In this document: in pieces, positions 11,301 to 64,000 of the stretch
How positions within the stretch are numbered: position 1 is the stretch's first letter
Layout: each line of letters begins with the position of its first letter
From: Cyanophora paradoxa CCMP329
Lineage: Eukaryota > Plantae > Glaucophyta
Direction of reading: 5' to 3'
Assembly (NCBI GenBank): GCA_004431415.1
Contig: QPMI01000198.1
Span: 82,740-146,739 of the forward strand
Length of the DNA: 64,000 nt
Notes under the pieces: generated by a model
The model's database searches: none
Seen by the model: only the letters and a program-made list of their open reading frames with translations
Told to the model about the DNA's origin: nothing
Made by a program: the position numbers and the translations under genes

Positions 11301-12013
11301 GCGAACGTGCGGCGTCAGCTAACGCGGGTCAGCGGGGCCTGGCTGCGCAGCGGTCACCTCTTTCTGTAGGCGCTCGCGGTGCGGAATCCTGACTCGGTCG
11401 TAGGCGTAGCCGTGCGCCCTCGCGATGAGCTCGTCCACCTGCGGCGCGCGGGGTCAGGGGCGCAAGATTCGCACTGGCGCAGCTGGGGCACCTTCTCATC
11501 GTTCAGGCGAGCGCTGTTGACGAGCTCGCGTCTCAGGATTGCAATGGTGACCTCCTGGTCCTTCAGATCTTGCTGTGCGGACCAGCGCATCAGTTCAAGC
11601 GAACCAGACCGCGAGCCCACATGCGCTTGCCTCGAGTAGCTTGATGAGGTTGGATCGCTTGTTCTCCTTGTTCTGTATCTCTGCATCCTTGATGCGCTTC
11701 TCCAACAGCTGGATCGTGCCCATCAACGCCCGGACCTTCTTGTTGTGCACTTCCGTCAGCGCCCTGATCCTGGCCGCTGCCAGCTCTGTGCAGCCAGCGG
11801 GGTTAGCTAGAGCTAAAGAGGCGCTCGAGACGGGTGCGCGCCTCCGCCGAGCATGGCCTCGGCATCTTTCGCTGCATGCGAACCGCTCGCTTCTCTCGGC
11901 TGGCGAGAGCTGCTGGGGCCTGCAATCGCTGCAGAAGGAGTAGCATGCGCGTGCGGTGCCCTTCCCGCGCTTGGCGGGCGGCTCCGCGGGGCGCTGGCCG
12001 GGCGCGAGGACAT
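8338..12013 (-). CDS. Long coiled-coil protein, copy 1 (complete; multi-exon)
   Basis: ATG at 12013 (MSSRPASAPR..). Heptad-rich exons ELAAARIRALTEVHNKKVRALMGTIQLLEKRIKDAEIQNKENKRSNLIKLLE, DLKDQEVTIAILRREL and EDLARQVEELQAEAAARAAAEKKLTELN are separated by short GT/GC-AG introns. Low-complexity C-terminus ends ..HYSTGYGL* at 8338. Confidence 0.7.
8494..12009 (-). repeat. Left arm of a ~3.3-3.5 kb inverted segmental duplication (partner 34714-38007)
   Basis: The reverse complement matches 34714-38007 through exons and introns at roughly 90% identity by eye. Many ORFs in the track appear twice on opposite strands. Confidence 0.95.
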
Positions 12014-33700: not shown

Positions 33701-34276
33701 CATCTTCGTAGTCCACGGCCCGAGCCTGCGTACAGTTTGTCGACACTCCACACCAGGAAAAGATATCGATAAGAACATACTGCCATTCCGACGCAGGCGT
33801 AGTACCAGAGATGTCAAACATAGTTCCACAGTATTCGAAGAGTTCAGCAAGGAACTGCGGTGCTTTAGCGGGCATATTCGGTTCGTCGACGAGACAGTCG
33901 CACCAGATTGCCACGGTAAAGGCTGACTTGATAGCACGAGGCGGTGTTAGCGATTTGATACTCTTTCGATGTGATTGTGATTGTCTGAAGGCTTGGTCAA
34001 CTCATTGCCATCTATACAACCCGCTTTCATGAGCACCTGAGGAGCGAAGACGCGCCAGTGTCCACCGTTGCTGAGCTTCAATGTCGCAGCGTCTTGGCCT
34101 GCGCCGCGTTTGAATATGAGCTGAACGAAACACCGCTCCAAAACCACTCCGCTCCGGGGCTGCATTCGCTCGATTCATGACGCACCATTCCCAAACATAG
34201 CTAGAGACGCAAACAGGACTACAACGAGGGCCGCCCGGCCCGCCACAGCGGCGCCGGCTGCTGTGCGGCCTGCCAT
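24792..34276 (-). CDS. Giant type I membrane/cell-surface glycoprotein (signal peptide, several Ig-like Kre9/KNH-type repeats, CUB domain, beta-propeller-like region, Thr/Ser stalk, one TM, short tail); many exons
   Basis: ATG 34276 MAGRTAAGAAVAGRAALVVVLFASLAMFGNG-QD (signal peptide). Repeated G..(T/C)ITW...(V/I)DLY...G(S/T)Y.W motifs. CUB-like YIEFESNGDDKTADGFELEY. TPSTTTNSTG repeats. TM GVIILACLGIPLMTFCGCVCGWFA, then KRK and a Tyr-rich tail to the stop at 24792. Minus-strand ORFs are contiguous across the interval; a single gene is inferred. Confidence 0.7.
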
Positions 34277-34713: not shown

Positions 34714-37700
34714 CCTCGCGCCCGGCCAGCGCCCCGCGGAGCCGCCCGCCCAGCGCGGGAAGGGCACCGCACGGGCATGCTACTCCTTCTGCAGCGATTG
34801 CAGGCCCCAGCAGCTCTCGCCAGCCGAGAGAAGCGAGCGGTTCGCATGCAGCGAAAGATGCCGAGGCCATGCTCGGCGGAGGCGCGCACCCGTCTCGAGC
34901 GCCTCTTTAGCTCTAGCTAACCCCGCTGGCTGCGCAGAGCTGGCAGCGGCCAGGATCAGGGCGCTGACGGAAGTGCACAACAAGAAGGTCCGGGCGTTGA
35001 TGGGCACGATCCAGCTGTTGGAGAAGCGCATCAAGGATGCAGAGATACAGAACAAGGAGAACAAGCGGTCCAACCTCATCAAGCTACTCGAGGCAAGCGC
35101 GTGTGGGCTCACGGTGTCGTTCGCTTGAACTGATGCACCGGTCCGCACAGCAAGATTTGAAGGACCAGGAGGTCACCATTGCAATCCTGAGACGCGAGCT
35201 CGTCAACAGCGCTCGCCTGAACGATGAGAAGGTGCCCCAGCTGCGCCTGTGCGAATCTTGCGCCCCTGACCCCGCGCGCCGCAGGTGGACGAGCTCGTCG
35301 CGAGGGCGCACGGCTACGCATATGACCGCGTCAGGATTCCGCACCGCGAGCGCCTGCAGAAGGAGGTGACCGCTTGTGCAATCAGGCCCGCCGACCCGCG
35401 TTAGCTGACGTCACGCATACACACAGGTGAAGCAGCTGCAAGCGAAGGCGACGCAGGCGCAGCACGAGGCAATGGAAGCGAAGGCGCGCGTGGCGATTGT
35501 GGCAGCGGAGAAGGCGTCGGTCCCGTCGCCGGACGCGGACACGCGGATCACGTACAGGGAGCACCAGAAGACGGGCGAGCGGGCCTTGCATCGCCCTCTC
35601 TCCGCACCTCTGACGCCTTGTCGGCAGTTGCGCGGATGAAGGACCTGGCGCGGCAAGTGGAGGAGCTGCAGGCGGAGGCGGCGGCGCGGGCGGGGGCGGA
35701 GAAGAAGCTCACGGAGCTGAACACGGAGCTGACCGCCAACCTGCGGCGCCTCCGAGCGTGCGGCCGCCCCTCCCGCCCCGTGCGGCGCTCTCTGACGCGC
35801 GGTGCAGGGCGGAGGAGGAGTGGGCGAAGTGGGCGCAGGAGCGCGAGAAGCTGGAGAGCCGTGTCAACGAGCTGCGCTGGGAGAGCGCCGCCCTCTTCGC
35901 GGAGCGCACGCGGGTGCGCTGGGACGCCAACCCCCCCTTTCTCGCCTGAGACGGGATGTAGGCGGAAGAGGCGGCGCGGGCGGCGCAGCGGGAGGCGGAG
36001 GCGGCGAGACGGGAGGTCGAGACGGCGCTCGCGCGGCAGGCGGAGCTGCAGGCCGCCGCCGCGAAGCAGGCCGCAGCCGCCGCCGCGCCGCAGACGCCCG
36101 CCGCCCCGGCTCCGCAGCCGCCGGCGACGCCGTCTGGGGTGGCCGGTGCCCCCGCGCCCGCAGCAGCAGCCGAGTCGCCGGCCGCGCCCGCCCCCGGCTC
36201 CCGGCCGGCGCCGGCGTCGGGGCGGGCATCGGCCTCCTCCGCGCTGCCCGAGCTGGCGGCGGCCCGCAACGAGGCGGCCGAGCTGCAGTCCAAGGTCCGC
36301 GCGCGGGCGTTCGACACCGCCGCGCAGCCGGGGCCGACAGGCGGCGCGCAGCTGCGGGAGGCGGATTCGCAGCTGGCGGCGCGGGAGACGGCGCTGACGG
36401 CCAAGTGGCAGGAGGCCGTCGCGGCCGCACAGGAGGAGCGCAGCCGCGCCGCCGACGAGCGCGGTGCCCGCCGCGCGCTCCCAGCGAGCCCCCGCCGCTC
36501 ACGCCGCGGCCCCGCGCAGCGCGGCTGGAGGGGAACCTGGATGCGGTGGAGAAGGAGGGCGGCGGCGCTGCGGGCGCAGGTCGCCGAGCTGCGCATCGCC
36601 CTCGCGGCGGCCCAGCGGGAGCGCGACCTCGCCGCCGCCTCTGCCTCGGCCCCGGGCCAGCCGGCGACGGGCCAGTCCGGCGTGCCCGCCGAGGCCCTCG
36701 CCACGGTCCGGCGCTGCCCCTCGCGGCTCTGGACGCTCCCTGACGGCGGCCCGGCCCGGCAGCTGGAGGCGACGGTGGCGCAGCTGCGGAAGCAGCTGGG
36801 CGAGTCGGCGGCGGCGGCGGGGCGGGCGCGGGAGCGCGAGGCGCAGCTCGCGGCCGACGCTGACGCGCTCCGCCAGCAGCTCGCCGCCGCCCAGCAGCAG
36901 CTCCGGTGCCCCGCCGCCCCGCCCCCCCCCTCCCCGCCGCTCCTGACGCCGGCCTGCAGCGCCGCGGCGCCCGAAGCGGCCCCGGCAGTCACGCGGAGCA
37001 TCGCCGAGGCGCGTAGCGTTGCTTCCAGGCGTCTGCCCCGGGGCTAATCTCTCGCTCGTCCCGCAGGTCGACGCGCTGCGGCAGCGGGAGAGGGAGCAGG
37101 CGGCGGCGGAGCAGGAGCTGCGGAAGACGCTCGCGGCGGCGCGCGCCAAGGCGGAGGCGGCGGAGAGGGCATCGGAGGAGGCGCGGGGGCGCGAAGCGGC
37201 GCTGCAGGAGCGCGCTGCCCGCGCCGAGGACCGCGCCGCCGCCCTCGAGCGCCTCCACGGGCCCTCCTCCGCCCAGACCGACGTGCGTTCCCGCGCTCCC
37301 TCGCCGCCTCGCCAGTGTCTCTCGCTTTCTGAGCCCTTGGCGCCAGGGCTCCCAGCGGACGCGGCCGTCCGGCGCGCGGCACTACGACGAGGTGCGCGGT
37401 CGTCCCCGCCGCCGGCGCCGCGCCCTTCGCGCTGACCGGCGGCCCGCTGCAGGAGGAGCGCCCGGGCGGATGGCAGCAGCAGGCGGCCACGCCGGTGCAG
37501 GCCGGCGGCTCCGTGCGGCGCTGCCGCGCATACACCTCGGGCTCCTACGCGGAGGTCGGCCGGGCCGAGCCGAGCCGCCCGTACCAACCCCGCTCACGGG
37601 CCGCCCGCAGGAGGAGCCGCAGAGCGCGCGGCGCGGGCGCGGCGGCGGCTTCGCCTCCTCCGGCGCCCCCTCCCAGCAGCGCGTGCGTGCCCGCCGTTCC

Positions 37701-38007
37701 TGCCGACGCGGCCCCCTCACGCCGACCCATGGCGCCGCAGGAGCGGGCGGGGTACGAGGACGAATCAGGGCCCGGGCCCGGCCTCGTGTACCTCTCCACA
37801 GGCGCCTTCGCCGCCGGGCCGGAGTGCGCGTTCCCTTGCCGCACCCCACGCGTCTCGCCCCTCGCCCCCGGCACTAACGGCCCCCGCAGCTCGGGCCGCG
37901 CGGCGTCGCGCCGCGGGAGCGACAGTGGTGCCGGCCCCCCGGCGCGCCGGGCGCACCCTGCGGGGGAGGGGCTGCGGGCCTCGGACAGCCTGCCGGCACC
38001 GGACAGC
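34714..38007 (+). repeat. Right arm of the inverted segmental duplication (partner 8494-12009)
   Basis: Matches the reverse complement of 8494-12009, with an internal deletion of about 215 bp near 37940. Confidence 0.95.
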
Positions 38008-43264: not shown

Positions 43265-44097
43265 ATCTTCAGATTCGCCGCGGCGCCGAGGTTAAATTCC
43301 CTTCCCCGGACCCAACTGACGCGCACGGCAAGTCAGTGGCCCTTTATTTCAAATCTTCATGATCAGAACCTTAGACTCAGTGTGACTCGGATCCGGAAGG
43401 CCTTGAAGCCTTGATCATGACCTAGGCCTTCATGATCATGATCATGATGCCAAGACTCGAGGATGATGCCACGGTCAGGGCTGGGCCATGATGATCATGC
43501 CATGGCCATGATGAACTTTCGGAAGGCCGGCCGGCGGGCCGCCGGGCTTCCGAAGTTCAAGGCTTCAGGCTTGGAACTCATCCCGGAGTCCGGGCCCTGC
43601 CACTGGGCCAGGCTGCTGATCATGATGTGCTGGCCATGGATCGCCGAGTCGTGATCCAATGTTCCGACCGTCGGACTCGGGCGACGATCGCGATCGCGAC
43701 TCGGCGAGTAGACCGATATCATCGCCGAGTCGGATCACTGTCAGGCCCTGACTCAGTGAGGCCCACCCGGTCACGGGTGACGGGAGGCAATTGCAACCTA
43801 CCAGGCCAGGCTCGGCCCTGGCCCAGTGGCAGGTTGAACCCCATCATGGCATGGTGCCACGGCGAACGTCGGACCTAGCCTCGGCTTAGCCTAGGCCTCA
43901 GGGCCTCGTCTAGGGCCCTAGGCCGGTCAGGACAAGCAGGGGGGCTCCGCCCCCCCGCACCCCCCCAGTGTTTTTTTGGGTTCTTTGATTTCTTGTGGTT
44001 TTTATTCTTCTTCTTATTATTATTAAAAGGGCCACTGACTTGCCGCGCGCGTCAGTTGGGTCCGGGGAAGGGCATTTAACCTCGGCGAATCCAAGAT
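43265..44097. mobile_element. MITE-like non-autonomous element bounded by 62-bp (to ~80-bp) inverted repeats
   Basis: 43284-43345 (CGCCGAGGTTAAATTCCCTTCCCCGGACCCAACTGACGCGCACGGCAAGTCAGTGGCCCTTT) is the reverse complement of 44026-44087 with 2 mismatches. The interior is non-coding and palindrome-rich. No clear TSD. Confidence 0.65.
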
Positions 44098-46000: not shown

Positions 46001-46713
46001 GCGCGCGCACACGCGCGTGGGGTCCGCTGCGGCGGGGGTTGGGAGGCCCCGGGCCGCCCGCCCGAGTGCTCAGAAGCACATCGCCTCGCCAGGAATCCAA
46101 GCATCTGTGCGGCCGCGACGCCCAAGGCCGCGACGCGGGCGTGCAATCACACGACCGACGATCATCTGCGCGGGCGCAACACAGGTCGCCGGCCCCATAG
46201 CCGCGGGCGGCCGATCGCTGCCGCAGAGCTAGGCTTCATCATTTATGTTTTGTCATGAAACATAGTGCTTTGCAATTGGTGATCATGATCATGATCAATA
46301 ATCATAGTGCATGCATCATGATCAATATATATATACACTGTGACAAATACCATCTAGAAAAGAATGTTGTTTATTTTGCGAGATAAAAAATTGCAAGTAC
46401 AAGCCCTTTTGCTTTTCTGTTTTGGAAATTTAGAGGGCCGACCGGCACCGCACCTCTTTTGCATCCGAGTGTTTCGTGCATGCACTAACTGCATTTGCGT
46501 GTTGGTGCGGCGCGAACCCAAATTATCGAGGTTGCCGCCTCCAGCCATTTCCATACATGGCCAAGTTTGGATTTTTTTTGTTGGCGCGGCAAGCTCGCTC
46601 ATGATGCAGCATTCAGAGGGGTATGCCCCCGTATGTACACTCGCGCGGCGGGCTCTGTTCCTGCTCCTGTCGCGCTGGGGGCGGGCAGGTCGCCGACGGC
46701 GTCCGGCACGCTT

Positions 46714-47681
46714 TCACTCGTCCGTCCCGCGGATCTTTTTGCGGAGCTGCATGTCCTTGGGCTGGATTGTGATGCTGCGCGCCCCCGGCGGTTATGTGCC
46801 CCTGTACGGGGCGCTACAGAGTTTTGGAGGGGGTGGAATATTAATGGGCGGCATATATACCGCTTGGCATGGATCGCGAGGAGGTTGCTCCCCTCGAACG
46901 TCTCGATGGCGTAACTGCGTCTCGACGATCAGTTGCAGAGGCGGCGTTCTATGAACTTGCAAATTTCGCGAACTGCTCAGTGGCCTCGCGGAGAGCGAGG
47001 ACGGCCTGCCGGCACCAGCGAAGAGCGGTGGTGTCGGTCAGCCTCGCCTCGCGAAGCTCCTTCAGGACATCCTCGGTGATCTCCTTGACGGTGCGGGTGA
47101 ATGGGGCGAGCGCAATGATGGGTTCGGTTCGCTTCTGCCACTTGCGAATCTCCCTGCGAGCGGTGGATTCACTGAGCCTCTGATAGTGTTTATTGCACTT
47201 GAGACAACATCAACGTACCGGAGGGCAACCGTGCCTCCGCAAAGGCGTGCGCGGTTATAAACAAATTTAAATCAGATAGAGAAACATTATGAATGATAGT
47301 CACTTCAAAAGGCTTTAAGATAGTAAGATCTAGAAAAAACGTTAATTTAGAAAAAACGTTAATTAAAATATAAGATCTAGAAATGATAGTTGAATTCCGA
47401 CTCGGCGAAGTTCGAAATCACTGACTAGAGTCACTTTAGTCACTTTAAAGTTAACCCTGCTATAGCGCTAGCTAGGCCTAGGTTCGCATACTGATCATGA
47501 ATAAATATAAAAGTGAACTCGGACCTGGACGGTAACGGTGTGGCTTCTTGACGCCTCCTGCTGCAGGAGCCGCTCGACGGGCCGCCTTTGATGCGAGCTT
47601 CCGCTCGCCCATGTTTGCGAATCGCTTCCGCGGGGCCTTGCCCCCCGTGCTCTTTTGCCCCGTGTGCTTTGTCCGTGCCAT
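46714..47681 (-). CDS. Divergent histone H3 variant, 155 aa (H3-like tail with K27R/S28A; cenH3-like histone fold)
   Basis: Exons 47681-47525, 47234-47219, 47153-46974, 46914-46861 and 46774-46714 splice in frame to [155 protein letters not shown]. All four introns are GT-AG; the intron 1 acceptor is a weak GAG. Confidence 0.9.
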
Positions 47682-47820
47682 CTGGCTATAGCTTGATCGG
47701 GCCGAAAGGCCCTGCGGCCTTGCCGGAGTGCGCACACGTGGGTGCTCTTATTTATATATTTGTATACACATGGAGTTTTTGCGTCGTGCATTTCAGATTC
47801 AGAGTCAAGAACTTCGGAAA

Positions 47821-49852
47821 TCAAGGGGCGTCGGACTCGGATTTCGAGCCGTCGGCGTCCGAGGCCCCGGGCCCGGCCGCCTTGATGCGAAAGACGTTCT
47901 TCGGCATGCGAACGAGCGGCTCGCCCTTGCTGTCGACGAGCTTCTTCACGCGCTCATCGAGCCGCTTCTCGATCTCCTCGAGCGCCGCGTCGTCGGCGCG
48001 CTGCAGGTTGGGAGAAAGGCGACAAAGTCCGCCGGGCTGACGCCGTCGCCCACCACGCGCGCGAGGCCCGGGAGGCGCTGCAGGACGCGGGCGCAGGCGG
48101 CCAGGTCCGAGTAGGCCTTGGCGCACACCGAGCGCTCCTCCAGGCGGAGGCCGCAGGCCTCGAGGATGTGGTTGTAGCGCGGCTCGACGCGGTCCCGCCG
48201 AAAGTAGCCCCAGCTGCGGGGTTCCGCCCGTTGGCCTCGACGTAGCGCTCGTACGCCCGAGGATGCCCGTCGAGGCGAGGAGGAGGCAGCGGATCCGCTC
48301 CCGCCCGCGTGCTGGGCCCGCAGGAGGAGGGCCCGCCGCGCCGCGGGGTCCCCGTCGAGCTGGATCCCGACGAGGGCGGCGTCGACGCCGCGCCGCAGCC
48401 CCCGCTCGAGCTCACGGAGGGAGAGAGTCCCCTCGCTCCTCTCCGAGACCGCCTCTTCCCCTCGCCGCCCTCGCCGCCACCGCTGCCGCCGCCGCCGCCG
48501 CCGCCGCCCTCGTGCTCCGCGTCCGCATCCGAGCCCGAGTCCGACGTCCCCTCGCCGTCCCGATCGCGATCGGCCGCCTCGAGCTGGGTCTCGAACTCGG
48601 CCCGCTTCTGCTCCTCCCACTCGTTCATCGGCCCGTCTTCGCCGGCGGGCTCGCCTCCGCCTCCACCGCCGCCGCCCGCGCCGGGGGCCTCGGTCTCCTC
48701 GCCCTCGCCCTCGCCCTCGCCCGCGCCCTCCTCGTCGTCCTCCTCGTCAAAGTCCTCGCGCTTGCACGTGTAGGCGTCGTAGAGGATGCGCTGCAGCTTC
48801 TCGCTTTCCCACGGCGGCCGCCGCTCCGACGAGGCGGGGCGGCGCTGCCGCTTGGCCGGCGGGCCCTTGGGCGCCTCGATGGCCAGCGGCGGCTCCTCGT
48901 CCTCGAGCTCGTCCTTGTCCTGGGCGGCGGCGGGGGCCATGCGCCTCGCGCGCGTCGCCCGGGCCGCGGCTGCCGGCGCCGGCGCCGGAGCTCCCTTGGC
49001 CGCCGACGCCGAGCTCCCCTCGGCCGCCGTCGAGGCCTGCGAGGCCCCGGCGCGCCCCGAGCGGCGGGGCGTCGACGCGTTCGAGTCGGTCCCGCCCTTG
49101 TGCGCGGCCGCGGGCTGGGCGGCCGCGGGGGAGCCCGCGGCAGTAGGCTCCTGGGAGGCAGACTCGGCCGCTGGCGCCGCCTGTCCCCTGGACGAAGAGG
49201 GCCCCGCCCCGCCGCTCGTCGGGGCGCGCGGCGGCACGAGGCAAGCGCGGCGAGCTGGATCGCGCGCGAGACGCCCTCGGCAGCCGTCCAGGACTCGGGG
49301 CGCTCGGCCTCGTGGACAAAGGCGCGGTAGGCGAGGTAGCCGTCGACGCGCGACGAGGGGACGAGGTGGAGAGGGTCGGGTGCGGCTCGCTGCACGCATT
49401 CTGGAGCATGGGGCACTCGACCTCGCCCTCTTCGTCTCCGGCCGCGCCCGTGGGCGCCAGAACCTGCGCAGAAGGGGACGTCGAGGGGGGCGGGGGGTAC
49501 GGTGGGGGTATGGGCGCGGGGCTGGCACCTTGGGAACGCAGGCGAGGCACACGAGGCCGTGGCGCTGGAGCAGGTGGCCCGTCGGCTCGTCGTTGAGGTC
49601 GATCGCGCGGTCGAGGTCGCCCCCGCCGGCGAGCTCGGCGATGCTCCTGGCCAGGCATGCCGGCACGTACGCCGGCGGGAGGAGCCGCTCCGCAGCGCAG
49701 ACGCTGCACCGGGGGCGCACGTCGAGCTCCAGCCAGGCCGAGATGTACTTGGGGCGGGCGATCCGCACGGGCCGCGCGTCGATCGGCGGGGCCCCCGACG
49801 CTGCCTCCTCCTGGGAGGACGCCGCCTGCTTGCCCTTGGCCTTGGCCCCCAT
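47821..49852 (-). CDS. RING-like zinc-finger protein with long acidic/Gly-rich disordered region; a few frameshifts
   Basis: ATG 49852 (MGAKAKGKQ..). CSVC..C..RHGLVCLACVPK, intron 49528-49464, VLAP..VECPM..C. NLS-like PPAKRQRR, acidic tract, and a helical C-terminus ending ..SESDAP* at 47821. Two to three single-base frameshifts are needed. Confidence 0.55.
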
Positions 49853-50164
49853 CGAGACCGCGGGACCCGTGTTCCCGGTACCCTCCCCGCTCGAGTCGAG
49901 GGGGTACGCAGGCCCTTTCAATCCTGCACGCGGGAATGAGACGGACGGCGTGCGACCGTCGGACGTGCAGCCATTTATGAATTCGGGAGATGCACGCCCC
50001 TCTCGCTTTTCCTTGGTGCGCATGCGCACCTGCGAACCGCGCGGCAGCGTCCAACAGGCCCGCGTGCGCTCGGCCTCTAGATCTGTGCCCGTTAAGGCCG
50101 GTGCGCCTCGCGACTCGTTCTAGCGGCGGCAGGCTTGTACCCCCGTTCACTTCACATGGACCCG

Positions 50165-50960
50165 AAATCGGCCGGGCTCTGGTCGGGGAGGGGGGGGGAA
50201 GGGGGGAGGGGGGGAAGCGCGGCTAGGTGCGGGTCTTGCAAGGCGTACCCGGCCCTCTCGACTTGCCGGATTTCGAGAGCGGTTTCCGAAGTGGCTCCGT
50301 ACCCCTGACCATACGGTACATAGACCTGGAATCGGCCGAGCTCTGGTCGGGGGAGCTCGAGTAGGGGGGGTAGAGGGTGAGGCCGCAAGGGTACCAGACG
50401 GACAAGGTCGCAAAAGACGCCGTTCCCCACACCCTCGGCAGAGCGACCAGAGCTCGGCCGATTTCAGGCCTAGAAAGAGGGGGCAGAACGATCTGTACCC
50501 CTCTTTCGCCGCCGACCAGAGCTCGGCCGATTTCAGGCCTAGAAAGGGGGGCAGAACGATCTGTACCCTTCTTTCGCCGCCGACCAGAGCTCGGCCGATC
50601 CCAGGTCTAGAAGAGGGGGACAGAACGATCTCGGCCTTTATCTTGAGGCTGTACCCCCCGATCGCGTGGTGCATCTAGACCGGGGATTGGCCGAGCTCTG
50701 GTCAGTGCACGTGGTGGGGGGGGAATTCAAAGGGGTTATATATAGAGGGGAAGGGTTGAAGGAAACCGGTATACCCCCCTCCCCTCCCCTCCCCTCCCCC
50801 TCCCCCCCCCAAGGCCCGCAGACTGCAGAAGATCCAACCAGAGCTCGGCCGATTTCGCGACCAAATATAAAGGGGGCAAGGTTAAGAGAGCGCGTCAAAG
50901 ACCACTACCCCTCAGAATCACCACAACTAGACCTGGAATCGGCCGAGCTCTGGTCAGCGG
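50165..50960. repeat. Left array part A: dispersed copies of the CAGAGCTCGGCCGAT core, including a 68-69-bp tandem repeat x3 (50444-50636) with an internal hairpin
   Basis: Unit CGACCAGAGCTCGGCCGATTTCAGGCCTAGAAAGAGGGGGCAGAACGATCTGTACCCCTCTTTCGCCGC starts at 50444, 50513 and 50581; stem GAAAGAGGGG/CCCCTCTTTC. Further core copies in both orientations near 50168, 50331, 50686, 50838 and 50938. Confidence 0.9.
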
Positions 50961-50982
50961 GGGGAGAGGGGATCCCGCCCCC

Positions 50983-52100
50983 TAATCGGCCGAGCTCTGC
51001 GCAGGGACTGCTGCCGCCAGGGCTGCGCGGTGCCGGACGCTTCCTGATCCGTACCCCCGCCCGCTCCCCCCCCCTCCTCTTCCTCCCCCTGCACAGAGCT
51101 CGGCCGATCGCGGCTCTATGAGCGGCGGCGGCAGAGGTGCGTACCCCTCTCTGTCTACCTCGCCCCCTAATCGGCCGAGCTCTGCGCAGGGGGCCGCTGC
51201 CGCCGAGGGTAGGGCGATACCGGACGCTTCCTGATCCGTACCCCCGTCCGCTCCGCCCCTCTCCCCCTTGCCCCCCCTGCACAGAGCTCGGCCGATCGCG
51301 GCTCTATGAGCGGCGGCGGCAGCGGTGCGTACCCCTCTGTCCGTTTTTCGCCTCTCTCTCTCGTCCCGTAATCGGCCGAGCTCTGCGCAGGGGGCCGCTG
51401 CCGCCGAGGGTAGGGCGATACCGGACGCTTCCTGATCCGTACCCCCGTCCGCTCCGCCCCTCTCCCCCTTGCCCCCCCTGCACAGAGCTCGGCCGATCGC
51501 GGCTCTATGAGCGGCGGCGGCAGCGGTGCGTACCCCTCTGTCTGTTCTCGCCCTCGCTCTCGTCCCGTAATCGGCCGAGCTCTGCGCAGGGGGCCGCTGC
51601 CGCCGAGGGTAGGGCGATGCCGGACGCTTCCTGATCCGTACCCCGCCCGCTCCGCCCCTCTCCCCCTTGCCCCCCTTGCACAGAGCTCGGCCGATCGCGG
51701 CTCTATGAGCGGCGTCGGGAGAGTGCGTACCCCTCTGCTTAGTTCTCGCGCCCTTTGTCCCGTAAATCGGCCGAGCTCTGCGCAGGGGGCCGCTGCCGCC
51801 GAGGGTAGGGCGATGCCGGACGCTTCCTGATCCGTACCCCCGCCCGCTCCGCCCTCCCCCTCTTTCTCCCCCTGCACAGAGCTCGGCCGATAGCGGCTCT
51901 ATGATCGGCGGCCGCACAGGTGCGTACCCCTCTGCCTGTTCTCGCCCTCTCTCTCGCCCCGTAATCGGCCGAGCTCTGCGCAGGGGGCCGCTGCCGCCGA
52001 GGGTAGGGCGATACCGGACGCTCACCTTGATCCGTACCCCCGTCCGCTCCGCCCCCCCCCCCTTGCCCCCCTGCACAGAGCTCGGCCGATCGCGGCTCTA
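50983..52100. repeat. Left array part B: six tandem ~185-201-bp units, each containing a 23-bp inverted repeat
   Basis: Units start at 50983, 51168, 51369, 51568, 51763 and 51962. Each has ATCGGCCGAGCTCTGCGCAGGGG ... CCCCTGCACAGAGCTCGGCCGAT around a conserved spacer. Confidence 0.95.
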
Positions 52101-52453
52101 CGAGGCGACGGCGGCAGGGTTCGAAAATCCCCCAGGCACCTCGCAACCGCATGTCGATTGTTTGAAAGAGAAAAAAAACATTCTTGATCACGAAAATGCC
52201 CTCACGCGCGCTCTGGGGCCGGCGCCGGCGCCGCGCGCGCCAAACTGCAGCGACCCCACTCGAGAGCCCCGCGTGCATTGAGCCTGTACGTCCACTAGCT
52301 CGAGCTGGCTCCCACGGTTATGCGTAAAGCCGGAAACGAGAGCACGCGCGCGTGCGCGCGTCTCGGTTCGATTCTCAGTCCCACACCGCACATGTACACG
52401 TGCACAAAAAACTCCACGCACTTTTGATGCGCTCGGCACAATATACTCTCTGC

Positions 52454-53470: not shown

Positions 53471-55281
53471 CTATACGGTAGGCTGCGAGTCGCCGGGGAA
53501 GAACGTGAGCGTGTAGTTGTGCCGTTCGCCTTCGACGGTGCAGTAGCGGTCGCGCAGCCACTCGCAGGTCGGCTTAAACGTGTTGTGCTGCAGATGGGTG
53601 CTGATCGACGCCGCAAACGGGCCGCCCTGACCCGTCAGCCTCCCGATCTCCGACCACTGGATGTACCGGACGACGCTGAACGGCGCGGGGGCGTCCTGGT
53701 CCTCTCCGAACGCGAGCGCCGCCACGCCGTGCAGTCCGACGGCTCCCAGCGGGCGGATGGAGCGCGCGTCCAGCAGGCCGCTGGCCACGGGTACCTCGAA
53801 ATACTCCAGGTCGCGGGCGTAGGGCGTCACGGAGACGAGAAAGGGGCGATCGACGCCGGTTCCTTCGAACTCGAACTGGCCGGCGGCCTGGTAGATGAAG
53901 TTCCAGTCGCCGACGGGCGTGACGCAGCCGTACGACTTGCCCTCGCAGGGCATGTGCAGCTCGATCATGGTGGGGCGACCAGCGCCGCTGCCAGCGAGGT
54001 AGTACATGTACATGGACGCGCTCCGGATGCTGCCCACGTTCCGAGCCGCGTGGAGGAGCCAGTTCTCGCCCAGACCGACGGCAAAGGCCTCTGCGGGCTC
54101 GGCGCCGCAGACGATCCACCAGCCCTGGCGCGCAGCGCCGCCCGAGAGCCGCACCGATGCGATGAACTCGACAAAGGCCTCCTCGCGGGCGGCGGGTTCG
54201 TCGACGCTGGAATCGTCCTCCATCATGTCGACTTCGTCCGCACCGCCCATCTCCATACCGCTGCGCAACACCTTGACCCGCACCAGCACGGCGTTGCCGC
54301 GCGCGTTCCACGTCAGGCTCGCGTCGCACTCGTGCAGGGGCACGTCGCTCCAGTCGCCGAGGGCCGAGGGGTCCCCGGAGCCGTCCACCTCGGCGAGCTC
54401 GTGGGAGAGCCGCGCGCGCGCCGCTGTCGAGTGCAGGGGGCCGGCGTCGGCCGCGGGCGCCGCGGCGGCGCCCTCTGCAGACTCGCCAGAGCCCACGAAG
54501 CGGACGAGGACGCGGCCGCCCGCGGAGCCGCCGTCGCCGGCGACGCTGCAGATCGCGACGCGCGAGGCGTCGGGAGAGGGGCGGCACGCCACCACGCCGG
54601 CGACCGCCGCGCCGACGTCGACGGTCGAGACGCCGCCGTCGGCGGACCAGACGAGCCAGCCGCGCTCGCCGCCGAGCACGATCGTCCCGTCGCCGGCAAT
54701 GGAGACGGAACCGCGAGCAAAGTCGCGGATGGGGAACCCGGCCGGGATCTGCAGGGCGTCGCCGAACCCGCCCGGCCCGTAGCGGACGATGGCGCCTCGC
54801 GGGGCGAGGTCCTCGGCCGCCGCCGCCGCCGCCGCCGGGGGAAGAGGATGCACACCCAGCGGCCCTCGCTCCCGGGCTCTGTCGGGAGGGCAAAGGTCGC
54901 GTCGAGGCCGCCGAGGCGCGACGGGATCGGGATCTCCGCCCCGCGACCGCGCCCCGCGATGAGACGGAGGCGGGCGCCGCGCGACGCGCCGGGCCCTCCG
55001 AGCAGCAGGGCGAGCGCGTCGTCGACGGCGAGGGCGTCGAACCAGCCGCTGGAGACGTCCGAGGTGCCGATCGCAAAGGAGCGGGACTGCTGGCACACGG
55101 TGAGCATCTTGAGGCGGTCCTCGCGCCCGAGGTAGTTCAGGATCGCCTCGGACAGGTCGGCCGGGAGGGATTCCATCCGTTTGCAGAACTCGCTCTCCGC
55201 GGCGCCGTGGACAAAGGGTTTCTCGACGAGGCGGGGCGCGCCGGCAGCGGTCATCGTGGCGAGGTTTGCGTTGGTGGCCAT
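53471..55281 (-). CDS. Intronless F-box protein with C-terminal beta-propeller-like domain, ~600 aa (one frameshift near 54840)
   Basis: F-box pattern MESLPADLSEAILNYLGREDRLKMLTVCQQSR in ORF 54313-55281. Beta-strand blades (VSIAGDGTIVLG, CRPSPDASRVAIC, LTWNARGNAVLV) in ORF 53471-55096. Confidence 0.7.
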
Positions 55282-55489: not shown

Positions 55490-58400
55490 TCACGCAGGGG
55501 GAGCGGGGGTAGGTGCCGGGGCGGGGCGGGGGGGAAGGGCCAAGAGGGGTACGCCAAAGTGCTGAAAGGTGGAGCGGGGTACGAAGAGGAGCATCTTCGC
55601 CCCGCACGAGCGCGGCCCGCGGGCGACGCGCGGGCGCGCGAGGTCCTCGGGCAGGAGCCGCGCCGCGCCGTCCACGAAGAGGCTGATGCCCGAGGTGTCG
55701 GAGCCCGTGCGCGCCACGTCGATTCCGGACGAGGGAGCGTGCGGCGCTCCTGGGGAGGTCCCGCGCAAAGATCGACGTGTACGCAAACCCGACGCAGGGT
55801 CCGGCCCCTCCCGCCCCTCCACGATGGGGCACCACTCCGAGGCGCGCTGGGCGGGGCGCCGGCGGCCTCGGCGAGGCGGCAGAGGAGCCAGGTCGCGTCC
55901 TCGGTGGGGAGGGCGGGAGACTCCTCCGCGGCGGGGAAGCCGAGGCCATCCCGCGCCGCCCCGTCGTCCATCGCGAGGGCGGCGCGCGCCAGGTCCGCGC
56001 GCAGAGCGCCGCGACGTCGGGTCGGCGCCGGCGCCGAGGGCGGCGCGATCGGGGCGAGGGCCTCGGGGGCCTCGGAGGCGGCGGCGCGCGCCAGGACCTC
56101 TGCGTAGGGCGACGCGCGGGAGGCCCCGTCCCCTCCTCCTCCCCGTCGCCGGCCCCGCGCCAGCAGCGGGCGGCGTCCTCGCCGAGGACCGCGCGCGCCG
56201 CCTGCGAGAAGAAGACCGCCGAGTGCACGCCCGACTTGAGGAGCCGGAAGACGCGCTGCGCCGCGTCGCTCGGGCGGGGGCGGGCCCCCGCCTCTGCCGG
56301 CGCGCCCGGGGCGCCACCCTCGCCGCCCTCGCCGCCGCCGCCGCCCGCGCCCGCCGCCCGGAGCTTGGACTTTGGATCCTGGACGAGCGCGATCTGGAGG
56401 AGCGCACGCCGGCCGCCAGGAGCGCCCCGAGCGTCGCGTCGGGCGGGACGTCCCGCGGCCGTCCCGATCGCGCCCGTAGAGGCGCAGGCCGAGGAGGACG
56501 GTCTCGGGTCGAAGCAGTAGCGCGTGCGCTTGACGGTCCTGCGCGCGCCGCCCCGCACCACGCGCCGCGCGTCGGCCGCCGCGACGAGCACGCCGAGGCC
56601 CAGCTGCTCCGCGGCGTGGACGACGAGGTCGTGCAGGAGGCGCCGCGCGCAGTCCCCGATCGGGGAGGGGCGGCCCCCTTGTTGCGCTTCTCCGGGCGGA
56701 GGCACTCGAGCTGCAGAGCTCGGCGCACTGCCAGCGGAGGCGTCGGCGCGGTACGCGGCGATCGCGAGTAGGGATCGCGATCCGCTCCCACGCCGCGCGG
56801 CAGGCGTCCGCAAAGAGCCGCCCGAGGGGCCCGTCGGTAAAGATGCCACCCTCCTCGATCGCCTCGCCGAGCCCGCGCAGGCGCGCCGCGCCGCAGTCCT
56901 CCGGCCCCTCCCACGTCGCCCAGAAGAGGTAACGGAGGCCGCCGCGACGTCGCTCGCCGCCGCCGCCGCGCCGCCGCCGGGCGGGACGCGCGCGCCGAGC
57001 AGCTCAAAGAGCCGCAGGGCGCTCTCAAAGGGGCGGCGCCGCTCGCGGTGGTCCGGGAGGAGCGTCGCGCTCTCCTCGTCGGGGGCCGCCCCGAGGCGAG
57101 GTACGGGAGGGTGTCGAGGGCGAACCGCTTGGAGAGGCGGAAGATCTCCGCCGCGGGCTCTGCTCCGAGAGGCGGACCTCGGCGACGCCCACCTGCTCGG
57201 GCCGCAGCCCGAAGCGCGCGGCGGCCTTTTCGCGCTTCCAGGCGCGCCGCGCCGCGTCGGAGACCTCCACCGTGGACGTCCCGTACTCCATGGCCCCCGG
57301 ATCGCCTTGGCGCAGTCGTAGCCCAGCAGCCGCGGCGCGGCGACGATGGGGAGGAGCCGCTCGCGCGCCTCGACCTCGGCCGCCAGGGGACGGCAGAGTC
57401 CGAGTACCCCTCCGGCATCCAGGGAGGCCCCCCGCCGCCGGCGCCGCCGGCGCGCTCGGCCCGCGCGCGCGCCGCCCTTGGGCTTCTTCGGGGGCTGGGC
57501 AGGGGGTACACGTAGAGGCCCTCGTTGCCGAGCGAGCGGAGCTTCAGGTGAAACGCCAGCATGGGGCACGCGTGCGTCGCGTTCCGGAGCGCCGTGCGGA
57601 CGGCCCGCACGCGGAGGTAGTGCTCCTCGGTCGCCACGCGCCTCTCCGCGGGGAGCCGCTCGTTCCACGCGCGCACCGAGTCCACCAGCTCGCCGTAGAT
57701 CGCCCGCCAGTCGACGGGGGCGTGCAGGGGCCGCCCCTGCCGGTCGGGGAGGGGGCCTTGCGGGGAACCGGCAGAAGAAAAAGGCGTCGGGCCCGATCAC
57801 GTGACGGCGGCGGCGGACGAGCTGAAAGCCGGCGTTGACGTCGGCGGTCCGCCCCTCCTCGATGTAGGCGACAAAGTTGGCGGCGGCCCGCTGGAAAAGT
57901 CGGTGCCCTGGGCATCGCGTAGTTGGAAGCGTAGCAGAGGGCGGAGCAGACGTAGTCCGAGTCCGTCATCGTCTGCCTCGCGCGCCGGTCCGCGTCGGCG
58001 TACAGGAACTCGCAGCGGCGCCCGGAGAGCCGCATGTGGCGCCGCACGATGGACTCGATCTCCCAGAGGGCGCGCCGCGTCGAGCAGGCGATGTAGCCGA
58101 CCTCGCCGGCGAGGAGCTTGGCGGCGATCACGGCGGCGGCGTAGCGAATGTCGATGGCCGTCCAGCGCAGGCGCGCGTCGTTGCTGCCGCGCTTGAGGTA
58201 CGAGATGACGTCGCCCCCGGGCGGCGCGCGGCGTAGAGGGCGGCGTCCTCGTCCAGCAGGTCGGCGTCGGCGACGATCACGAGCGCCGGCGCCTCCAGCG
58301 CCCTGTCGAACCAGGCGACCGTCTGCGCGTGGTGCTCGGGCCCCTTGAACGGCCCGCCCGTCGTGAGGGTCGTGAGGGCCCGCGCCCCTCGTCGACGATG

Positions 58401-61400
58401 ACGACGTCAAAGTCGCCCTCGAGCCGGCGGCCGCTCTGCACCGTGCACATGACGAACGAGGCGTCGGCGAGCTCCTCGGGGCGGGCCTCCTTGTAGACGG
58501 TCCAGGCGACCGGCACGCGCTCGCCCGACGCCGAGGGGTAGGAGAGGGCCGCGAAGCGGGGGTCCTTGACGAGGATGTCGGGCTGAACTCGCCCCGCCGT
58601 CACGTAGAGGACGCGGGGCGGCGCGCCGGGGACGCTGGGGAGCCCACGAGCGTCGGGTCGTCCAGCACCGCCTGCAGGATCCCCGGGGGCCCGGCCCCGC
58701 CGCGCCCTCGCGGCCCCCCACGCACGTCTCCGTCTTGCCGCTCCGGTCTCTGCCCGCACAAAGATCGTCTTCCTCCGCCGTCGAGGCGCGCGAGGATGGG
58801 GGCCGGCTGCAGAAGCGCTGGGCCCCGGGCCCGCCGGCTCGTCGATGTCGATCCAGCGTCGGGCGACGGGATCAAAGTCCGCCGGGATCGCGAGGGGCCG
58901 GGAGAGCTCGGGAGGCGGAGGGCAGCGCGCCACGTCGCGAGGTCCGGCAGCATGGCGCGCAGCCGCGCCGCCGGCCCGCCGGTCGCGCCGTCCTCGAGGG
59001 GAAAGGAGCCGGGGCCCGACGCCGCGGGCCGGACGCGCCGCTCGGGCCGCCGTCGGAGGGAGCGCCGCGCGGCGCCGAGCGTGCGCAGCCACGCGACGAC
59101 GGCATCGAGGTAGTCGACGGCGCCCTGAGGGAGCTCCGCCCAGTACGGGTTGCGGGCCGTCGCGCCAAAGGTGCCGGCGCCCATGGACTTGGCCTGCTCG
59201 GGGAAGAGCCGGAGGGAGAACATGTCCACCTCGTCCTCGCGAGGCGGAGCTCGGTCGCGTCGTCCTCGCCGAGCTCCAGCGGCCCGCAGGCCAGCGCCCG
59301 CCGCACGCCGCCGCGCCGCACGCCCGGACGCGCACCTGACCGCGCTCCTCGCCTCCCCGCTCGTCTGGTCGATGAAGAGCTTCCCTTGCGGTGACCGCAG
59401 CTCCAGCAGGGACGCGGACAAAGTAGGAGCGGCCTCGACGTGCGAGGCGACGCGGACGGGGGGCAGCGCCCCGCCGGCCGCTGCGGGAGGGCGGGGGCGG
59501 CCGGCGCCGGCGCCGCCCGCGCGCACCGTCCTGGGGCCCGTCCCCCTGCCCCCTCCCCCTCTGCCGCCGCCGCTGCCGCCTGCGCCTCTGCCGCCGCCGC
59601 CGCCGCCGCCGCGCGCGCGAGCCTCTCCGCGAGCTGGAGGCTCCGGTCGGCGATGCGGGCGACGGTGGCGTGGAGCCCCAGGAGCGCCGCGTCGGCCTGG
59701 GCGAGGGTCGAGGCGCCGCCAAAGGCGCCCGGCTGGGCCCACGCGAGGGCGCCCAGGAGCGGCTCGCCGGCGCAGCGGAGCGAGTAGCAGTGCGCCGTCG
59801 CGGCGAGGACGCCGGGGATGCGCTCTCCGCCACCCACATGCTCGTCTCCACGCGCTCGTGGTCCGGCCGTGGGGGCAGAGCTCGCCCCCGTCCGCGTCGG
59901 GCGGCGAAACAAAGTGGGAGATCGAGGGGCCGCCGCGGCCGCGCGGCCGCGGCGGGGGCGGCGCTCCAGCCCCGCCCGCGCCCGCCCCGCACGCGAGGAG
60001 CCCGAGCGCTCCACCACGCCCTCGCTGATCGTCGCCTCGTCCTCGGCGTCCCGTCCTCCGCATTCCCGCCCTCCTCCTCCTCCTCCTCTTCTCGCCCTCC
60101 GATCGAGCGTCGGCGGCGCCGGGGGCCCGGGGGGCGCGCGGGGCTTGGGCGGCGGAGGCGGGCGCCGTCCGCGGGGCCGCCACGTGGAGGGTGTGCTTGG
60201 GGCGATCTCGCGCGCGAGCTCGCGCAGCCAGCGCCACTCGTCGCTGTTCCACGCGACGAGGAGCGGGTCGGGCCGCGTGGCGTGCAGGCGGACGTCGCCG
60301 CGATCGCCGCGTCGTCGACGGCCTCCAGGGGTACCGCCACGGGGTAGTAGGAGGTCCAGCGTGGCGGTGCTCGTCGGAGCGGCAGCGCTGTTGACGCGGA
60401 ACGGCGCGAGGTCCAGGACGCCCTCCTTTCCAGCTGCTCCACCATCGCCCGATCCCGCGCTCCTCCGCAAACGGGACGACGACGCGCTCAAAGCCTCGCG
60501 CCCCTCCACCGTCCCGCCTTGTACATGCCGGGGACGCGCCGCGGCCAGCGGCGCGCGTGGCCTTGGACCAGAAGGAGCGGCGGAGGCGGCTCTTCTCCCC
60601 TGCGGGACCGACGGTCGCGCAGCGCCGCCGCCGAGTCCTCCTCGAGCCGCTTGAGCTTGGCGCGCACGATGCCCACCACTGGTCGAGGTCCTCCTTGGCG
60701 TACACGGCGGCGCCGGGCCCCTCGACCGCCGCGACGAGGTCGGCGTCGCGCACGTAGACGTGGAAGCCCTTAAGGCCGAGAAGACGACGAGGACGGCGAC
60801 GCCGCGCGCCTGGAGGGCCGGGCAAAGTCGCGCGCGCGGCGGGCGACGCCGAGGATCTCGGGACCTCGGTCCAGTAACTGGGCGAGGGTCTCGCACCGCG
60901 CCAGCACGCCGGCGAGGTACTCTTTCTTGGCGTTCTTCAGCTGCTCCCTCCGAGCGAGCCGCCCTCCAGCGCCTCGGGGAAGCGGATGTTGGGGACGTCA
61001 AAGTCAAAGACGTTGAACGCGCGGAGGGTGCGCCGGCGCCGCCCGCGTGCTCGACGAGGATCTGGGGCGAGATCTGGACGACGGCGCGGCGCGCGACCGG
61101 CGACTCGAGCCTCTCCACGTCGGCGGGCTGCAGGGGACGGCAAAGATCGCGTCGCGCGCGGCGCCCTTGCGCGGGTTGCTCTTGACGAGGACCGTGGTCC
61201 GCACGATCTGGTTCGCGGCGGGGGCGGGAGGGGCGCGCCGAGGGCGGCGCGGTCGCGCCCGCCGGCGCCTTGTCCTCCATCTCGAGGTCGCCCTCTGCAT
61301 CGGCGCCGGCGCCTCCTTGGGCGGCAGCGGCACCGCCGGCGGTGCCGCCCCTCGCGCTTGGCCTGCGCCGCGGCGGCGCACGGCGGCACCGCCTGCGGTG

Positions 61401-61522
61401 CCGCCCCCTCGCGCTTGATCGTGACTTGTGCGCTGCGTTGCACGGTGGCACGCCGGCGGTGCTACTCCGGTTCGGTCGCCGGTGGGACCCTCGGACGCAT
61501 CGTGGTCCGCCGGGCGTTTCAT
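55490..61522 (-). CDS. AEP primase-polymerase + UL52-type Zn finger + herpes UL9/OBP-like SF2 helicase fusion, ~2000 aa, intronless, many single-base frameshifts (pseudogene or assembly error)
   Basis: AEP motif I AFNVFDFDV (~60995-61020), motif II VVFS/GLKGFHVYV (~60750-60790) and possible motif III GVLDLAPF (~60400-60430). Zn finger LCPHGR/DH...HCYSLRC (~59770-59880). Walker A TIFVRAETG/SGKTE (~58725-58770), RVLYVT, VMCTVQS, Walker B FDVVIVDE (~58388-58412), UL9-like LVIVADADL, YIACST. Confidence 0.8.
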
Positions 61523-62149: not shown

Positions 62150-62775
62150 ATGGCCTCTGCCGCTGCGCCCGCGCCGAGCGCACCTACGACCTCGGACGGT
62201 GGAAGTATCTGGACGGCACGCCTACGACGACCGCCCGGGGCGTGATCGCCGCGCCGCTCGCCAGCTCGGCGTCAAGTCCAGCCGCATCGGTGAGCGAGAT
62301 CGTCGGGCGCCCGGCCGGGGGCGACCCGCACCGCGACCCTCTGCCCCGCCCGCGCCGGCGCCTGGGCGCCTACGAGGCGGTCGGCCGCGCCGCCCACGTC
62401 GCCTGGACGTGCACGAGCAACCTGTGGCGCCCCGCCGCGCGCGCGCGCTCGACGACCGACGCGCCGGTGCGCGCGTCTGCTCCAGCTCCCGTGCCGCCGA
62501 CGCGCCTCGGGTGCGGGCACGTCTTCTGCCTCGGCTGCCTCCTCCCGATCGCGCCGCTCGGTGCCCCCTCTGCCGCGCCGACCCGGGCTCGAGATCGTGC
62601 CGATCCGCCGGCGGCGCACCGGCGCCTCTACGAGGCGGTCGCGAGGCCTACGCGGCGCGGCTCGCCGAGGCCGCCGCGGGGCTGGACCCGGCCCTCCCGC
62701 GGGCCCTCTGCGCGCGCTTCGTCGATCCCGCTGGCTCTCCCCGCCCGATCGAGACGGCGCCGCGCGAGCGCGTGA
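62150..62775 (+). CDS. RING-HC (C3HC4) finger protein, intronless, frameshifted; 3' end uncertain
   Basis: C..C, then PTRLGCGHVFCLGCL and ARCPLCRA (62470-62580). ATG 62150; divergent from the primase-helicase gene. Confidence 0.65.
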
Positions 62776-62965: not shown

Positions 62966-63830
62966 GTGCCCTTGAGGTTGCGGTAGCCCCCTTTCTCCAC
63001 ATAGAAGCGGGAAATGGCCGAGCTCTGCGCGGGGGGGGAGTGTGAAAAAGGGGGTACGGTAGCCGACGAACAAGGTGCGGGGGGGGAGGGGGTGGAAGAG
63101 GAGGGGAGAGGGGGCAAGACGAACAAAGGGGCGGACCGAGACGCCTTGCCGCCGCTCTACCCCCTAGACTCCTCCCCCCTGCACAGAGCTCGTCCGATTA
63201 CCGGCAATGCGGGGAGCGGGACGGGGAGGGTGTGAAAAGGGGGTACGGTAGCCGACGAGAGGGTGCGGGGGGGTGAAGAGGGGGGGAGAGAGGGGGCAAG
63301 ACGAACAACAGGGCGGGACCGAGACGCCCTTGCCGCCGCTCTACCCCTTGACCTCCTCCCCCTGCACAGAGCTCGTCCGATTACCGGGCAATGCGGGAGC
63401 GGACGGGGGAGTGTGAAAAGGGGTACGTGAAAGAGGGGGGAGATGGGGGCAGACGAACAAAAGGGCGGACCGAGACGCCTTGCCCGCCGCTCTACCCCCC
63501 TGGACCTCCTCCCCCCTGCACAGAGCTCGTCCGATTACCGGGCAATGCGGGCGGGACGGGGGCGCGTACCGGCCGACGCCGTGCACGGAGGTACTGCTTC
63601 CGGATCGACTCGCTCACCTACCTCTCGCCGTGCCCTTGAGGTCGCGGTACCCCCCTTCTCCACATAGAAGCGGGAAATGGCCGAGCTCTGTGCGGGGGGA
63701 GAGTGTGAAAATGGGGTACGGTAGCCAACGAGAGGGTGCGGGGGGGGTGAAAGAGGGGGGTGAGGGGGGCAAGACGAACAAAGGGGCGGGACCGAGACGC
63801 CTTGCCCGCCGCTCTACCCCCCCTAGACCT
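62966..63830. repeat. Right array: ~155-185-bp tandem units within a ~664-bp higher-order repeat, sharing the left-array core
   Basis: CCCCTGCACAGAGCTCGTCCGATTACCG at about 63177, 63360 and 63514. GTGCCCTTGAGGT..CACATAGAAGCGGGAAATGGCCGAGCTCTG at 62966 and 63630. GACGAACAAAGGGGCGGACCGAGACGCCTTG occurs x4. Confidence 0.9.
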
Positions 63831-64000
63831 CCTCCGCGGGCGGGGGCGCGTACCCCCGCAGCACCCGGGGCAGCCGCGCCACCCCCCCGTGCACGCCTGC
63901 GCAGCCGAGGGGGGTAGGCCCGCGCCGACGAGGCGCCGAACAGATGAAGGCGTCTCCGGCTCTGCAAAATTAGTTGAATCGGTACGGCGCGGCGGGTGGA

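Follow-up and report, generated by a model that had tools for sequence, protein, structure and literature searches.

Does a virus-like element in the nuclear genome of a glaucophyte carry a histone H3 of its own? The question is raised by a 64,000-nt stretch of Cyanophora paradoxa CCMP329 DNA (assembly GCA_004431415.1, contig QPMI01000198.1, positions 82,740–146,739; termed the window below). Here the gene of a divergent H3 lies next to a Cys-rich/acidic gene (the neighbour), a repeat array and a cassette that includes a gene for a fused primase/UL9-like helicase (Table 1). An earlier reading of the letters alone (the sequence-only reading) had proposed that an element carries this H3 to escape Polycomb repressive complex 2 (PRC2) or, alternatively, that a protein resembling centromeric H3 (cenH3) serves segregation. 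The present analysis indicates that the H3 variant is likely carried as cargo by a virus- or plasmid-like element that is present in several copies and is probably replicated by the adjoining primase-helicase. The fuller interpretation, a host-derived H3 that was co-amplified with a virus-like replicon and is likely blind to silencing by H3K9 and DNA methylation, is held tentatively, and the function in it is predicted.

The gene of the H3 variant has four GT-AG introns of 290, 65, 59 and 86 nt. The public gene model comprises 95 aa and overlooks the micro-exon. The gene is not taken for a pseudogene, since the micro-exon resolves what looks like a break of phase behind exon 1. Exon 3 alone scores above the cut-off of the Pfam Histone family and H3 entries of the PDB are matched at 1e-17. 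By tblastn this is the one H3 locus in the window, and no other histone is present among the 273 frames scanned; the element may exceed the window. Intron 1 (47235–47524) is AT-rich and contains a 17-nt tandem repeat; the intron is not the same in all copies. A run guessed to be RNA has zero cover in the bin 46668–47334, which is no evidence either way on expression of the H3 gene.

Residues were compared with one animal-type record of canonical H3. The variant is identical to it in 35 of 44 tail residues (80%) and in 37 of 72 fold residues (51%). The loss of K27 noted in the sequence-only reading is confirmed in an intact gene: the tail carries Q5H, A7G, R8Q, T22S, K27R, S28A and T32A, and eight residues are inserted after K18. 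An apparent K18R in the alignments stems from the placement of the gap, as K14–K18 are contiguous in sequence. K4, K9, S10, K14, K23, K36 and K37 are retained. The eight positions of the two ARKS motifs hold four of the nine tail substitutions (P about 0.05, post hoc). In the fold, Q68T, F84W, T107S and C110L are found beside the retained K56, H113, R116, T118, D123, L126 and I130. From D77 to R83, loop 1 counts 16 intervening residues, 11 more than the five of canonical H3.

These features allow a mechanism to be proposed. The gene would derive, as genomic DNA, from the H3 family of the host itself. The helicase would bind the inverted 12-mers as an origin and copy a unit that takes in the H3–neighbour pair. 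The variant is expected to pair with host H4, because the H3–H3 interface residues H113, D123, L126 and I130 are kept. By A7G/R8Q and K27R/S28A the variant has lost both ARKS motifs, which would block methylation of K9 and K27 and phosphorylation of S10 and S28, and the retained K4, K14, K23 and K36 would still allow active marks. Both K9 methyltransferases and Aurora kinases depend on R8. Nucleosomes with the variant would be poorly marked by the silencing enzymes of the host, and its deposition may be directed by the extended loop 1 through a dedicated chaperone.

The H3 variant is not a single-copy gene, a state that the sequence-only reading had regarded as damaging to an element-borne origin. 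Each annotated near-identical H3 copy of C. paradoxa in EukProt (4/4) lies one accession from a Cys-rich/acidic neighbour. The copies comprise two sequences with two accessions each (P004929 and P018422; P023441 and P023459), and the neighbours beside them are P004930, P018423, P023442 and P023460. Three pairs are also tied by gene names, namely g4783/g4784, g22645/g22646 and g22662.t2, the last being one model that fuses both genes. The window's own gene copies were recognised by exact 10-mer coverage (99–100%). Between the neighbour and the start codon of H3 there are 139 nt, in agreement with the 140 bp and the common orientation given earlier. A short-read contig spans this gap with 0 substitutions; thus, the H3–neighbour junction is not a chimera.

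The neighbour family comprises eight matches among 1,988 candidates, all of them from the C. paradoxa assembly. Five are window-like and three are ~60% identical. H3 stands beside at least four of the five window-like copies. In two runs, a single contig aligns to the beginning of exon 3 as well as to pieces of the 3' end of the neighbour, with unmatched stretches between. Its joints at 47161 and 48097–48327, where the matching sides have only 20–30 bases, are a hint that H3 lies beside the diverged neighbour type as well. Joints in runs X1 and X2 suggest that intron 1 differs more between H3 copies.

The gene is likely maintained as a protein, since the listed differences between copies in exon 3 are mostly silent. 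Of the seven differences between the window and the dominant contig of runs X1 and X2 among the best-supported rows, six are silent, the expected silent share being 26–30% (P 0.002–0.004). The sole non-silent difference listed, T-to-P, is shared with the tig00021583 copies.

The ~200-bp array reported in the sequence-only reading is real, and its first motif (50179) lies about 330 nt from the start of the neighbour. The window contains 21 copies of the 12-mer pattern, with an expectation of 0.09, and all are confined to the arrays (18 left, 3 right). The right array is 76% identical to the left one over 91 nt, and the window ends within it. This layout suggests that the left array is a candidate origin, for which the adjoining primase/UL9-like helicase would be the initiator. 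The first ESM Atlas match of the central part of the helicase (0.98) is to a cluster in which 53% of the members carry Herpes_ori_bp, and the Pfam Herpes_ori_bp family gave no match to the helicase at E ≤ 1. What we take to be Walker A and B-like motifs are visible in the helicase, and what are presumably the DxD and SGxKGxH motifs of archaeo-eukaryotic primases (AEP), the first two of three motifs of which the last is also acidic, are visible in P0002. In a PDB sequence search the helicase matched nothing but a P-loop, by chance, and this match was discarded. Besides the window's own copy, two annotated helicase copies are present on other contigs (7,971 candidates scored, lengths 616–2000).

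All six genes left of 62 kb have the same orientation. Contig depth, a rough measure, is alike over H3 with its neighbour and over the cassette (268–286 vs 231–434 in run X1; 237–362 vs 228–458 in run X2). In run X7 the depth of H3 and neighbour is about double that of the cassette (14–15 vs 6–7). The window's neighbour and helicase genes contain frameshifts. Several short-read contigs align there with 0 substitutions and 6–18 gaps, and other copies read through; the frameshifts look like long-read indel errors. The assembly paper describes PacBio contigs and probable haploidy (PMC6704402).

Several points weigh against an element-borne H3. The H3–neighbour pair and the helicase are both multi-copy, but only one long-read contig, which is rich in errors, shows them linked (tig00000849), and neither of the other helicase copies is on a contig known to hold H3. 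The pair sits outside the two arrays and not between them. A second pair, on tig00021046, is identical in its proteins to that of the window and could represent a double assembly of a single locus. Other contigs hold five or more further H3 paralogs with the long loop, one of them with K27. K9 and S10 themselves are retained in the variant, and should PRC2 be absent, the loss of K27 needs no adaptive reason. The N-terminus of the helicase matches Pfam DNA_primase_S and LigD_Prim-Pol weakly (E 0.09), and its CyRepA1 match is far below the NCBIfam cut-off. No capsid, packaging ATPase/terminase, portal, PolB, integrase or transposase was found with Pfam, PHROGs and NCBIfam in the indel-fragmented frames of the window, and the PHROGs and NCBIfam scans gave nothing above cut-off.

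An ordinary host gene family is the explanation that competes best, and we regard it as possible but on balance unlikely. C. paradoxa would have its own radiation of long-loop H3s, and the present variant would have been segmentally duplicated with the neighbour in repeat-rich DNA; K27 would have drifted after loss of PRC2 and the element would have inserted next door. Exon 3 as a query against 1.84 billion representatives gave 26 matches, and six of the ten looked up are from C. paradoxa. A tree was built from seven C. paradoxa rows including the variant, one canonical H3 and six rows that we label cenH3-like by their features; host CenpA candidates and host canonical H3 were left out. In this small sample of 14 rows, the seven C. 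paradoxa rows form one clade (100/98), outside the cenH3-like rows and canonical H3. All clade members have the long loop and W84, and apart from the near-identical copy their folds are 39–57% identical to that of the variant. The four spliceosomal introns, the position of the pair outside the arrays and the fact that a helicase is seen beside H3 at this locus only likewise favour a host family, as does the lack of EZH, EED and SUZ12 entries for C. paradoxa (see below). On the other hand, the neighbour has no relatives outside C. paradoxa in one search (8/8 matches) and falls into two homogeneous subfamilies, like element genes. The similar contig depths argue in the same direction. Loss of PRC2 alone does not explain the variant either, as S28 and the context of R8 are also lost.

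The more divergent long-loop paralogs on other contigs are P0017, P0020, P0021, P0030 and P0031. P0020 has K9R and keeps K27, P0030 has K27R/S28A and S10G, and two of the five lack an H3 tail. An AlphaFold model of P0030 has a predicted local distance difference test score (pLDDT) of 47 and is unusable. Three clade members are full-tailed. In two of them K27R/S28A occurs together with A7G/R8Q; in the third, K27 is retained and R8K/K9R is present. Accordingly, the K9 site is altered in 3/3 and K27 is lost in 2/3. In the C. paradoxa CenpA models printed in PMC5579357 a single residue is missing at G44 and, in one model, another at R116. The codons of G44 and R116 are those split by introns 1 and 4 in the H3 variant, which would fit shared intron positions with the CenpA models and a host origin of the H3 variant.

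A far-reaching version of the element-borne H3 extends to the entire clade, and we consider it speculative, with a somewhat smaller chance than the host family. A capsid-less glaucophyte nuclear replicon, with a primase-UL9 helicase, inverted-12-mer origins and F-box and RING genes, would have captured a host H3. Its repressive ARKS sites would have been erased and its active-mark lysines kept, and a cenH3-like loop would route it onto element DNA via the acidic neighbour. The whole long-loop clade of Cyanophora would then be element-borne, in an arms race against H3K9/CpG silencing in a PRC2-less host.

The neighbour consists of a Cys/His-rich N-terminus, an acidic middle (24–38% Asp/Glu in residues 301–450) and a helical C-terminal domain. 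The sequence-only reading called it RING-like and acidic. The acidic part of this description stands, and a RING-like ligand spacing is present (C49, C52, C66, H98, C102, C105, C125 and C132, in a region with a model pLDDT below 50), but no match to Pfam RING families was found (threshold E ≤ 0.01 for the frames of the window and E ≤ 1 for one copy). The AlphaFold model has a pLDDT of 39 and a fold search gave helical bundles with a best Z of 5.7, so that no fold is established. ESM Atlas returned no coherent family for the C-terminal part. The neighbour is possibly a dedicated chaperone for deposition of the long-loop H3; both this role and that of an E3 are guesses.

A segregation module, in which a cenH3-like histone on the ~200-bp arrays provides a kinetochore or centromere hitch-hiking for element copies or episomes, is improbable. 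The variant shows features of cenH3, namely a longer loop 1 and replacement of Q68 by Thr and of F84 by Trp. Its loop 1 of 16 residues compares with 15–16 in two cenH3-like rows, and the array unit has 196–201 bp. At position 107, which we presume to be the diagnostic threonine of cenH3, the variant has Ser. The source of the cenH3 criteria gives position 118 (PMC4359364), and T118 is kept. In contrast to cenH3s, the tail is not highly divergent, and in the PDB the variant scores practically the same against Cse4 as against H3 (67.8 and 67.3 bits). At least five other genes, with divergent tails, are given as CenpA of C. paradoxa (PMC5579357 supplement 3), the arrays extend over only about 2 kb and 1 kb, and the variant is separate from the six cenH3-like rows of the small tree. 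The cenH3-like alternative offered in the sequence-only reading is thereby weakened. The variant may be specially deposited like cenH3, but it should not be classed as one.

A misjoin of a real H3–neighbour pair to the helicase cassette at the array is very improbable. Indel errors are frequent in the contig and no listed short-read contig crosses the arrays; the chimera raised in the sequence-only reading is dispelled at the H3–neighbour junction. The pair and the helicase also have near-identical copies without errors, which lie on two different contigs, 135 accession numbers apart. Against a misjoin speak the similar contig depths on both sides and the common orientation of the six genes left of 62 kb. 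A 2-kb array is also within the span of long reads.

The species code CYAPAR is taken here to denote C. paradoxa. In a 2023 ortholog set its four occurrences are spread over the files for PCGF, RBBP and RING, and it is absent from those for EED, EZH and SUZ12 (PMC10638273 supplement file 2). PMC5405695, which reckons with gaps in the annotation, likewise gives no core PRC2 member for C. paradoxa and calls H3K27me3 inconclusive. PMC9018016 also gives zero PRC2 for this species, but with a BUSCO value of 0%, and was set aside; an E(z)-like SET domain is reported there in another glaucophyte. Escape from PRC2-dependent H3K27me3, as proposed in the sequence-only reading, is the least probable explanation: K27R is real and common to one paralog, an anti-K27me3 band is seen in C. 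paradoxa extract and repeats are marked by H3K27me3 in the red alga C. merolae (PMC5405695), but the complex itself appears to be missing. In C. paradoxa, 32% of CpGs are methylated, on repeats, silent genes and virus-derived regions (PMC12344493). Since PRC2 seems absent and CpG methylation covers repeats and virus-derived genes, the silencing avoided by an element-borne H3 would more likely be that by H3K9/CpG methylation.

Known systems resemble the locus in part. Single viral H3s (DSLPV1, Manila clam xenomavirus, sylvanvirus and three metagenome-assembled genomes of nucleocytoplasmic large DNA viruses; PMC9145170) are also lone H3s for which host H4 and chaperones are presumed. Their folds are 73–87% identical to host-type H3 and their tail sites are mostly kept, whereas the variant reaches 51%, has four introns and a long loop 1, lacks K27 and S28 and has no virion genes found nearby. 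Arabidopsis H3.15 (K27H; PMC10426802) is likewise an H3 without K27. It is, however, a developmental host variant directed against PRC2, and the present gene is multi-copy beside a replicon gene in a host that apparently lacks PRC2. CENP-A and other cenH3s (PMC4359364) share the long loop 1 and the replacement of Q68 and F84, but not the near-canonical tail and T118, and the C. paradoxa genome has other CenpA candidates. Mirusviruses are intron-rich, and their core functions include histones and C3HC4 RING genes (PMC12768974), and C. paradoxa has methylated endogenous giant-virus regions (PMC12344493). Unlike mirusviruses and giant endogenous viral elements, the window gave no match to capsid, portal, terminase or PolB. 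Searches of viral contigs, which reach close relatives only, found no relative of the helicase, the neighbour alignment or H3 exon 3; with the same reach, metagenome contigs gave no relative of the helicase alignment, and a search of plasmids gave none. As in UL9-type helicases and CyRepA1-type plasmid initiators, a superfamily-2 helicase with Herpes_ori_bp-like features lies beside inverted boxes. Here the matches are below cut-off, the AEP-like fusion is part of a 1,900-aa protein and the gene is integrated in an algal nuclear contig. Transposons are known to capture chromatin readers (bioRxiv 2021.11.30.470311).

Viruses with a single H3 and host H3 variants without K27 are already known. 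New would be an integrated multi-copy element with a spliced, maintained H3 that lacks both repressive motifs. If the element-borne H3 is true, the locus would be a natural test of whether selfish DNA can evade silencing with a nucleosome of its own, in an alga that can be cultured and whose methylome is published. As an ordinary host family, too, this undescribed long-loop H3 clade imitates the diagnostic features of cenH3 and could lead to errors when centromeres of glaucophytes are annotated. A literature search by title or start of abstract, with most subscription papers outside its coverage, found no description of the H3 family or the element.

Table 1. Features of the H3 locus and the adjoining cassette (window positions).
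Feature	Position	Strand	Remarks
H3 variant gene	46714..47681	-	five exons, 155 aa; partly annotated as tig00000849_g4783
H3 variant exons	47681-47525, 47234-47219, 47153-46974, 46914-46861, 46774-46714	-	468 nt, frame open
H3 micro-exon, 16 nt	47219..47234	-	keeps frame; canonical residues 44-49
Neighbour gene g4784	47821..49852	-	~640 aa; 8 annotated copies, two subfamilies
Left array	50157..52117		18 exact 12-mers in alternating orientation in ~200-bp units (196-201 bp)
Left array tandem units	51159-52117; 50444-50631		201-bp x4.8; 68-bp x2.7
Open reading frame, ~190 aa	52454..53022	-	split by one apparent indel; no Pfam, PHROGs or NCBIfam family at thresholds
F-box-like gene	53471..55281	-	F-box match at the N-terminus weak and under the cut-off (E 0.005)
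Primase/UL9-like helicase g4787	55490..61522	-	~1,900 aa; AEP-type motifs (weak) fused to superfamily-2 helicase
Small RING-finger gene	62150..62775 (bounds approximate)	+	Pfam zf-RING_UBOX E 3e-4, below cut-off
Right array	63000..63850		~183-bp unit, three one-base variants of left-array 12-mer; may pass window end

A contig of run X20 (53813–55098) extends over the F-box-like gene but leaves out 51 nt (54236–54286), in the manner of an intron. Left of the H3 variant, the segment 45334–46667 is a high-copy repeat with bin means of 4,500–41,000 in the guessed-RNA run X20, possibly a transcribed element like a short interspersed or long-terminal-repeat element. Rfam gave 0 matches, this repeat included. 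The adjacent segment 44667–45333 is a very high-copy repeat (bin depth 10,000–17,000 in X1 and X2). A 62-nt inverted repeat (97%, 680 nt apart, 43284–43345 and 44026–44087) resembles miniature inverted-repeat transposable elements. Left of 43 kb, where 150 of the 152 frames of ≥150 aa were scanned, ordinary genes were found (MORN, Myb, thioredoxin reductase-like, Tubby). The minus-strand region 24795–34200 is a long intron-rich gene of ~50–55% GC in a contig of ~70% GC, with a likely membrane anchor at its end and no Pfam match in the frames scanned. An inverted duplication of ~3.4 kb (8529–12009 and 34714–37984, 89–97% identity) surrounds ~23 kb of host genes.

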